Virus record (IMG/VR): IMGVR_UViG_2671180395_000017
Reading direction: 5' to 3' (one strand)
From: a virus
Lineage: Duplodnaviria > Heunggongvirae > Uroviricota > Caudoviricetes
Length of the DNA: 11,338 bases
The notes below the pieces were generated by a model. The model did not search any database. It was not told the origin of the DNA and worked only from the letters and a program-made list of their open reading frames with translations. This document shows, one piece after another, positions 8,803-8,904 of the stretch. Every line of letters begins with the position of its first letter. Positions within the stretch are counted from its first letter, which is position 1. The translations under genes were made by a program, and so were the position numbers.

Positions 8803-8904
8803 ATTTCTATTTCTATTTCTATTTCTATTTCTATTTCTATTTCTATTTCTATTTCTATTTCTATTTCTATTTCTATTTCTATTTCTATTTCTATTTCTAT
8901 TTCT
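8803..8904. repeat. Perfect hexanucleotide tandem repeat (ATTTCT)17
   Basis: 17 uninterrupted ATTTCT units from 8803 to 8904, followed by one degenerate unit ATTTGT (8905-8910). Lies 15 nt beyond the IS30 end and about 200 nt upstream of the HNH gene start. Confidence 0.95.

Follow-up and report, generated by a model that had tools for sequence, protein, structure and literature searches.

A perfect hexanucleotide array in the nin region of an E. coli O157:H7 prophage is the MLVA typing locus VNTR-9

Slipped-strand mispairing is the established mechanism by which simple-sequence repeats change in length. E. coli O157:H7 carries several hexanucleotide MLVA loci, and O157-10 (also TR2 or Vhec1), O157-3 (TR5 or Vhec3), O157-17, O157-19, O157-25 and O157-37 are used jointly with VNTR-9 in outbreak typing. 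Like VNTR-9, these loci have 6-bp units that are inserted or deleted whole by slippage, at a rate that climbs with copy number; they differ from it in genomic site and in the sequence of the unit. O157-10 is ~ten times more mutable and was removed from the PulseNet scheme, whereas VNTR-9 was kept.

VNTR-9 reportedly received the name TR1 in Noller 2003, Vhec4 in Lindstedt 2003 and O157-9 in Keys 2005. The equivalence of these names, and the unit of 6 bp, are taken here from later papers (PMC3321953 Table 1; PMC3768571 Table 1). The primer pair is printed in two sources (PMC3321953 Table A1; PMC8461963), and its amplicons range from 474 to 614 bp (PMC8461963). Among 202 German isolates, the locus showed 6–23 repeats, 15 alleles, a diversity index of 0.90 and 31.7% null alleles (PMC3321953). 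In Japan, clade medians of 9–12 were found, with nulls frequent in clade 7. During serial passage, whole-unit mutations at VNTR-9, both insertions and deletions, occur at ~1.3e-4 per generation and faster above 13 units.

Identity and rarity of the array

The DNA analysed here, referred to as the window, is a stretch of 11,338 nucleotides from the viral record IMGVR_UViG_2671180395_000017. A regular-expression search of the window finds (ATTTCT)17 at exactly 8803–8904. The maximal perfect period-6 run extends slightly further, over 8802–8908, and amounts to 107 bp or 17.8 copies of TATTTC; Tandem Repeats Finder reports period 6, 17.8 copies, 100% matches, 0 indels and a score of 214. An earlier note on this DNA had described 17 uninterrupted units lying beside an IS30 end, between that terminus and the upstream region of an HNH gene. 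Each part of this description is borne out, as the IS30 ends at 8787, 14 bp from the array and in the same uninterrupted contig piece, and the HNH gene runs from 9103. The features of the locus, from left to right, are:

8022..8787, minus strand: truncated IS30 ("IS30 partial" in Sakai; "IS30 family transposase, incomplete" by PGAP)
8545..8575, plus strand: PulseNet VNTR-9 reverse primer site GTGTCAGGTGAGCTACAGCCCGCTTACGCTC, an exact unique match inside the IS30 transposase gene
8788..8801, no strand: 14-bp left flank GTGGTCTGTTTTAA, common to all copies of the locus, with or without IS30
8802..8908, no strand: perfect hexanucleotide array, the variable part of VNTR-9 / O157-9 / Vhec4 / TR1 (from repeat search and copy-number comparison)
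8909..9102, plus strand: non-coding right flank between array and HNH gene, 194 bp
9092..9118, minus strand: PulseNet VNTR-9 forward (labelled) primer site GCGCTGGTTTAGCCATCGCCTTCTTCC, an exact unique match overlapping the HNH start codon
9103..9669, plus strand: HNH endonuclease gene, with HNH_3 and AP2-like domains (PGAP and Sakai annotation; Pfam PF13392, 4e-11; phrog_99)

The array is real and far above chance, with an expectation of ~7e-57 for such a run under the base frequencies of the window. A search of 185,579 species-representative genomes finds 95 stretches with at least six perfect copies of the unit, few of which are from Enterobacterales, and a set of 2.9 million viral contigs yields 47. 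Seventeen copies are reached by only two of the retrieved species-representative arrays, and by a handful overall when viral contigs are included.

Both VNTR-9 primers match the window with 0 mismatches at one site each and face each other, where 0 sites are expected by chance. The array is therefore the PulseNet E. coli O157 MLVA locus VNTR-9, which was already known. The earlier note had guessed at a VNTR typing locus without naming it, and that guess was right: the 6-bp unit agrees, and the in-silico amplicon of 574 bp falls inside the published range of 474–614 bp. The corresponding products are 526 bp in Sakai and 532 bp in EDL933. Under the rounding rule quoted in PMC3321953, the window allele would be called as ~18 repeats, with counting conventions that vary by scheme. 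O157-10, the best-known hypervariable 6-bp locus, was considered as a candidate identity and is excluded by the primer match, being another locus.

Length variation and the state of the draft

When unit and flanks are sought in other genomes, as the earlier note proposed for recognizing a known VNTR locus, a query anchored in the right flank finds array plus right flank in 519 of 5426 complete E. coli genomes, at one or two places per genome. Copy number was sampled in 60 rows spaced evenly down the ranking of these 519 genomes. In 58 of them, with flanks at least 99% identical, the alignment starts at 15, 21, 27 and so on up to 93, that is, in exact 6-bp steps. One further row spans the whole query with 17.8 copies, placing the window allele in the top ~3% of the sample; in the remaining row, from pig strain PEC240, the array is intact but set apart from the HNH gene by an IS3. 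Sampled copy numbers range from 4.8 to at least 17.8 with a mode of 10–11, and the variation between strains that had been predicted for the array is thus found, in one-unit steps.

Other sources give a similar picture. Direct counts are 9.8 in Sakai, 10.8 in EDL933 and 17.8 in Z1323HEC0494, and matched lengths in complete O157:H7 genomes (1346, 1352, 1358 and 1394 bp) differ only by multiples of 6. The locus is also present in 17 viral contigs, with 6.2–14.2 copies. All copies examined keep at least about 5 units, and none of the 60 sampled genomes has collapsed to 0–3 units, the only seeming exception being the IS3 insertion next to an undamaged array.

Two further kinds of length change occur beside the array. 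In PEC240 (locus L149, 1131–2500), an IS3-family element separates the array from the HNH gene, an arrangement that fits the IS3-family insertions published for oversized MLVA amplicons (PMC3321953). A supposed array-less allele (H189) was rejected, as it is actually an IS3 insertion beside an intact array. Just right of the array, the T-run at window positions 8916–8921 is T6 in the window and most loci and T7 in the viral contigs L103, L105 and L131. This second, homopolymer length polymorphism lies inside the VNTR-9 amplicon and would move the fragment size by 1 bp.

The window itself was scaffolded from draft contigs, with 50-N gaps at the joins, so the earlier warning that short-read assemblers mis-size such arrays is a fair one. 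The runs of N at 8085–8134, 8380–8429 and 9824–9873 are scaffold gaps that do not preserve length. For example, a complete genome has 147 bp between 8084 and 8135, and the pieces flanking the second gap have 9 bp in common. Scaffolding leaves the finding itself unaffected, since no gap interrupts the piece (8430–9823) that holds the array together with its immediate flanks on either side.

Could the array, or at least its 17-unit length, nevertheless be an assembly artefact of a draft genome? Apart from the length-distorting gaps between short contigs, the piece that bears the array is just 1394 bp long, a 107-bp perfect repeat exceeds many assembler k-mers, and 17.8 copies is a value from the uppermost ~3% of sampled complete genomes. 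However, 519 complete genomes carry the array, as do phage genomes and viral contigs, alleles of 6–23 units have been measured by PCR (PMC3321953), and NZ_CP148319.1, a complete genome, matches the entire 1394-bp piece at 100% identity, the same 17.8 copies included. An artefact is thus quite improbable; the existence of the array is certain, and the exact count of 17 units is unverified for the source isolate.

The scaffold joins DNA of different origins. Bases 1–8084 come from Sp13, a P2-like prophage whose own IS30 begins at about 7608, and the sequence from 8135 onward comes from Sp17. Because the two IS30 copies stand in opposite orientations in Sakai, at a distance of about 880 kb, the Sp13-IS30-Sp17 junction may be a large inversion or, more likely, a join made through a collapsed IS30 repeat. 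Within the Sp13 part, positions 1–306 are 94% identical to an IS629/IS1203 end, as at the Sp13 border in Sakai, and an imperfect 21-bp tandem repeat (4409–4473; 2.4 copies, 77–80% matches) lies in the region of a P2-like tail protein pseudogene. The piece from 9874 begins in ninF of a different, HNH-less lambdoid prophage (9874–10091) and then enters ninG, and the window therefore contains a spurious partial duplication of ninG of ~364 bp (9644–9823 vs 10008–10187). A threefold repeat of the 9-bp GAAAAGGCA appears twice, at 9770–9797 and 10134–10161.

Prophage context, IS30 and the typing assay

The region around the array is the nin region of Sp17, a defective lambdoid prophage of E. coli O157:H7. 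In Sakai, the order in Sp17 is IS30 partial, array, HNH endonuclease, ninG, a Ser/Thr phosphatase gene and Q. Outside the array, dozens of O157:H7 chromosomes match the 1394-bp piece at 8430–9823 with 100% identity. The left inverted repeat of IS30 ends at 8787, the base corresponding to the end of the Sakai "IS30 partial", and the insertion point lies directly left of the 14-bp flank. The transposase reads leftward, away from the array, with its start codon at 8725 and its C-terminal part missing; in the window, the element is broken by the two gaps at 8085–8134 and 8380–8429.

To the right, the flank holds a weak terminator-like hairpin (8959–8975) and a ninF remnant, a small ORF at 8994–9110 that ends in ..EEEGDG and has no Pfam or PHROG match. 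The HNH gene, the right-hand neighbour of the array, is placed between ninF and ninG. The first nine residues of its product, MAKPARRRC, are the same as those of NinG in HNH-less phages. This shared start, together with the preceding ninF remnant, suggests an insertion of the HNH gene where ninF meets ninG, and a newly acquired N-terminus for the NinG of Sp17.

The array is also found without IS30, in lambdoid prophages (some of them Stx1-converting) of O26, O111, O145 and other strains. The IS30-free order is ninB, dam, ninE, a leftward 590-aa gene, the 14-bp flank, the array, the ninF remnant, HNH and ninG, as seen in an O26 prophage, a pig-strain prophage, an O157:H7 Stx1a prophage and phage SH2026Stx1. 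The flank GTGGTCTGTTTTAA precedes the array both in the Sp17 copies (the window and loci L001, L003 and L004) and in all IS30-free copies (L002, L005, L006, L149, L150 and 14 viral contigs). To the left of this 14-mer, the IS30-free copies read ...CATCAGGAATGTG in place of the IS30 end. Since they share the flank but have other DNA to its left, it follows that IS30 landed 14 bp from the array in Sp17, and by this comparison the array is evidently older than IS30. The array first sat in the spacer between the leftward 590-aa gene and the rightward ninF-remnant, HNH, ninG and Q genes. In the O157:H7 lineage, IS30 then inserted on its left side at a distance of 14 bp, and all phage DNA further left was lost, along with the right part of IS30 itself.

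The 590-aa gene is located at 2913–4685 (minus strand) of locus L005 and is also present in L002, L006 and L150, between ninE and HNH in a moron-like position. Its protein falls in phrog_9230 (function unknown) and has no Pfam or PADLOC match, a result on which a role as a defence system was dropped. In INPHARED, the gene is found in only two distinct phage genomes, both of them Stx1 phages.

In some O157:H7 strains, a second, paralogous array is found in the Stx1a prophage; it is free of IS30 and lies ~2.5 kb upstream of stxA1. The arrays at L150 3001–3079 (O157:H7 strain 2571) and L002 4015–4117 (phage SH2026Stx1) are of this kind and have a copy number of their own, at 13–17 units.

The position of the reverse primer within IS30 has consequences for typing. 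As IS30 is multicopy, a product can arise only from the IS30 copy that abuts the array, which is the one in Sp17. The IS30-array-HNH junction is present in about 281 genomes, as opposed to the 519 with array and right flank, and the IS30-free loci that were fetched have no VNTR-9 reverse primer site. Array copies of this type are presumably invisible to the assay and should score as null. Loss or absence of the IS30 junction is accordingly a plausible cause of VNTR-9 null alleles; no link between O157 MLVA and IS30 was found in the literature library searched. Roughly 45% of array-bearing complete genomes, including those of O26, O111 and O145, appear to belong to this null class, and the second array in the Stx1a prophage of some O157:H7 strains would be silent in the assay. 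In-silico MLVA on short-read drafts also calls for caution with a perfect array of 107 bp.

Coding, regulatory and neutral readings compared with known loci

Very probably, VNTR-9 is a neutral, non-coding microsatellite, located in a lambdoid prophage's nin region, whose length changes through slipped-strand mispairing. As the DNA is copied, the new strand would pair with its template out of register by whole 6-bp units, and copy number would drift both ways, with roughly 1e-4 changes in each generation and more at long alleles of 17–18 units such as that of the window. Slippage is inferred here from changes by whole units, together with what is established about microsatellites, and selective neutrality from the absence of evidence for another role.

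One such role would be in coding, where the array would give a small protein a hydrophobic stretch, (Phe-Leu)n or (Ile-Ser)n, of variable length, with the frame kept by the 6-bp steps. Two plus-strand ORFs of at least 50 aa span the array, one at 8747–9043 in the Phe-Leu frame and the other at 8788–8952 in the Ile-Ser frame. All three plus-strand frames are open through the array, the Phe-Leu-frame ORF has the same C-terminus with and without IS30, PGAP annotates an array-spanning ORF in two of the genomes examined, and the locus is listed as inside ORF Z3935/Z3936 of the original EDL933 annotation (PMC3321953). However, open frames are to be expected, because the unit has no stop codon in any plus-strand frame. 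The ORF starts also vary by context, lying inside IS30 in O157:H7 but 58 bp upstream in the IS30-free loci; ORF 8747–9043, which begins in IS30, therefore cannot exist in the IS30-free ancestral form, and removal of the N-terminus by the IS30 insertion has left the persistence of the array unaffected.

The frame that PGAP calls is the Ile-Ser one, among the genomes examined only in the two with arrays of about 14–17 units. No ORF is annotated over the array in Sakai, EDL933, the O26 strain or the 17.8-copy O157 genome, and the RefSeq re-annotation of EDL933 has at this locus the IS30 pseudogene EDL933_RS18690 and the HNH gene EDL933_RS18685. Neither array-spanning ORF matches a Pfam or PHROG family. 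The earlier note had dismissed ORF 8747–9043 as an artefact, which agrees with frames that are open by construction and the lack of a family, but had called it the only ORF across the array, which overlooks 8788–8952. A coding role is extremely improbable, and classical translational phase variation is excluded since a 6-bp unit cannot shift the frame.

Repeats can also act on transcription. The TAAA repeats upstream of Neisseria nadA, for instance, tune its expression, and promoter-upstream repeats of other bacteria may by analogy suggest a contingency element here. In such a role, the number of units would determine how far upstream of a promoter a binding site lies, or in which helical phase, or the array would itself serve as an A/T-rich upstream element. 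Slippage would then modulate HNH, ninG and Q on the right-hand side or, in prophages that lack IS30, the divergent 590-aa gene on the left. The ancestral position lends this some appeal, as the array sat between divergent genes and the sole sigma-70-like site, which faces the 590-aa gene, lay ~150 bp downstream of it, and at least about 5 units are kept in all copies examined.

Several observations weigh against a contingency element. A crude consensus scan of 8430–9300 finds no sigma-70-like site on either strand (0 found, 1.9 expected), and the only such site of the ancestral spacer, ~150 bp left of the array, points leftward and away from it, leaving no promoter-like site in, across or beside the array in either the window or the ancestral spacer. 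An array of 30–140 bp cannot fit between −35 and −10 elements. Copy numbers are smooth and unimodal and do not form on/off classes, and in O157:H7, where the left-hand gene is gone, the array varies just as much. An intact lambdoid phage needs no local promoter for its nin genes, since antitermination lets transcription from the early rightward promoter pR reach them; in Sp17, the upstream region toward pR is gone. Finally, twenty years of MLVA literature report no phenotype. The suggestion in the earlier note that array length might alter promoter spacing is thus without support, although not refuted, and a contingency role is highly improbable.

A broader form of this idea would have the array as a tunable element held at no fewer than 5 units in every lambdoid prophage that carries it, acting either as a variable A/T-rich upstream element of the 590-aa gene or of nin and Q, or at the level of RNA. 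RNA of the plus strand would be a long U-rich tract, and that of the minus strand would be (AGAAAU)n, a perfect (A-R-N)n tract, which is the motif bound by the distal face of Hfq. No predicted promoter reads the minus strand through the array. If the array were tunable in this way, slippage would adjust late-regulatory genes next to stx1 in Stx1 phages, but such a role is hard to credit. A structured RNA or DNA element was also considered for the array and is ruled out, there being no Rfam match at E<=1 and no fold of the single strand (0 kcal/mol, z = 0.5).

Neutral slippage thus remains the preferred account. The retention of at least ~5 units is predicted by length-dependent slippage dynamics, yet it could hint at weak maintenance, with which it is compatible. 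The array has no demonstrated function of its own and the finding is ordinary: E. coli O157:H7 has been typed routinely with this repeat since 2003, and it carries little biological weight.

Phase-variable contingency loci, such as the repeats of Haemophilus and Neisseria, are likewise perfect arrays of short units that change length at high frequency by slipped-strand mispairing. In those loci, the unit is not a multiple of 3 and lies in a reading frame, or the array lies in or just upstream of a promoter, and a phenotype is switched. The VNTR-9 array differs from them in its frame-neutral 6-bp unit, in overlapping no credible ORF or predicted promoter, and in having no known phenotype.

The VNTR-9 literature examined describes the locus as inside ORF Z3935/Z3936 or as hypothetical, and mentions neither a primer in IS30 nor IS30-free arrays in the lambdoid prophages of non-O157 EHEC or in Stx1 phages. 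With the published VNTR-9, the array of the window shares its primers, unit, amplicon range, O157:H7 prophage context and high copy-number polymorphism, and its allele of 17–18 units stands at the long end of the published range of 6–23 repeats.
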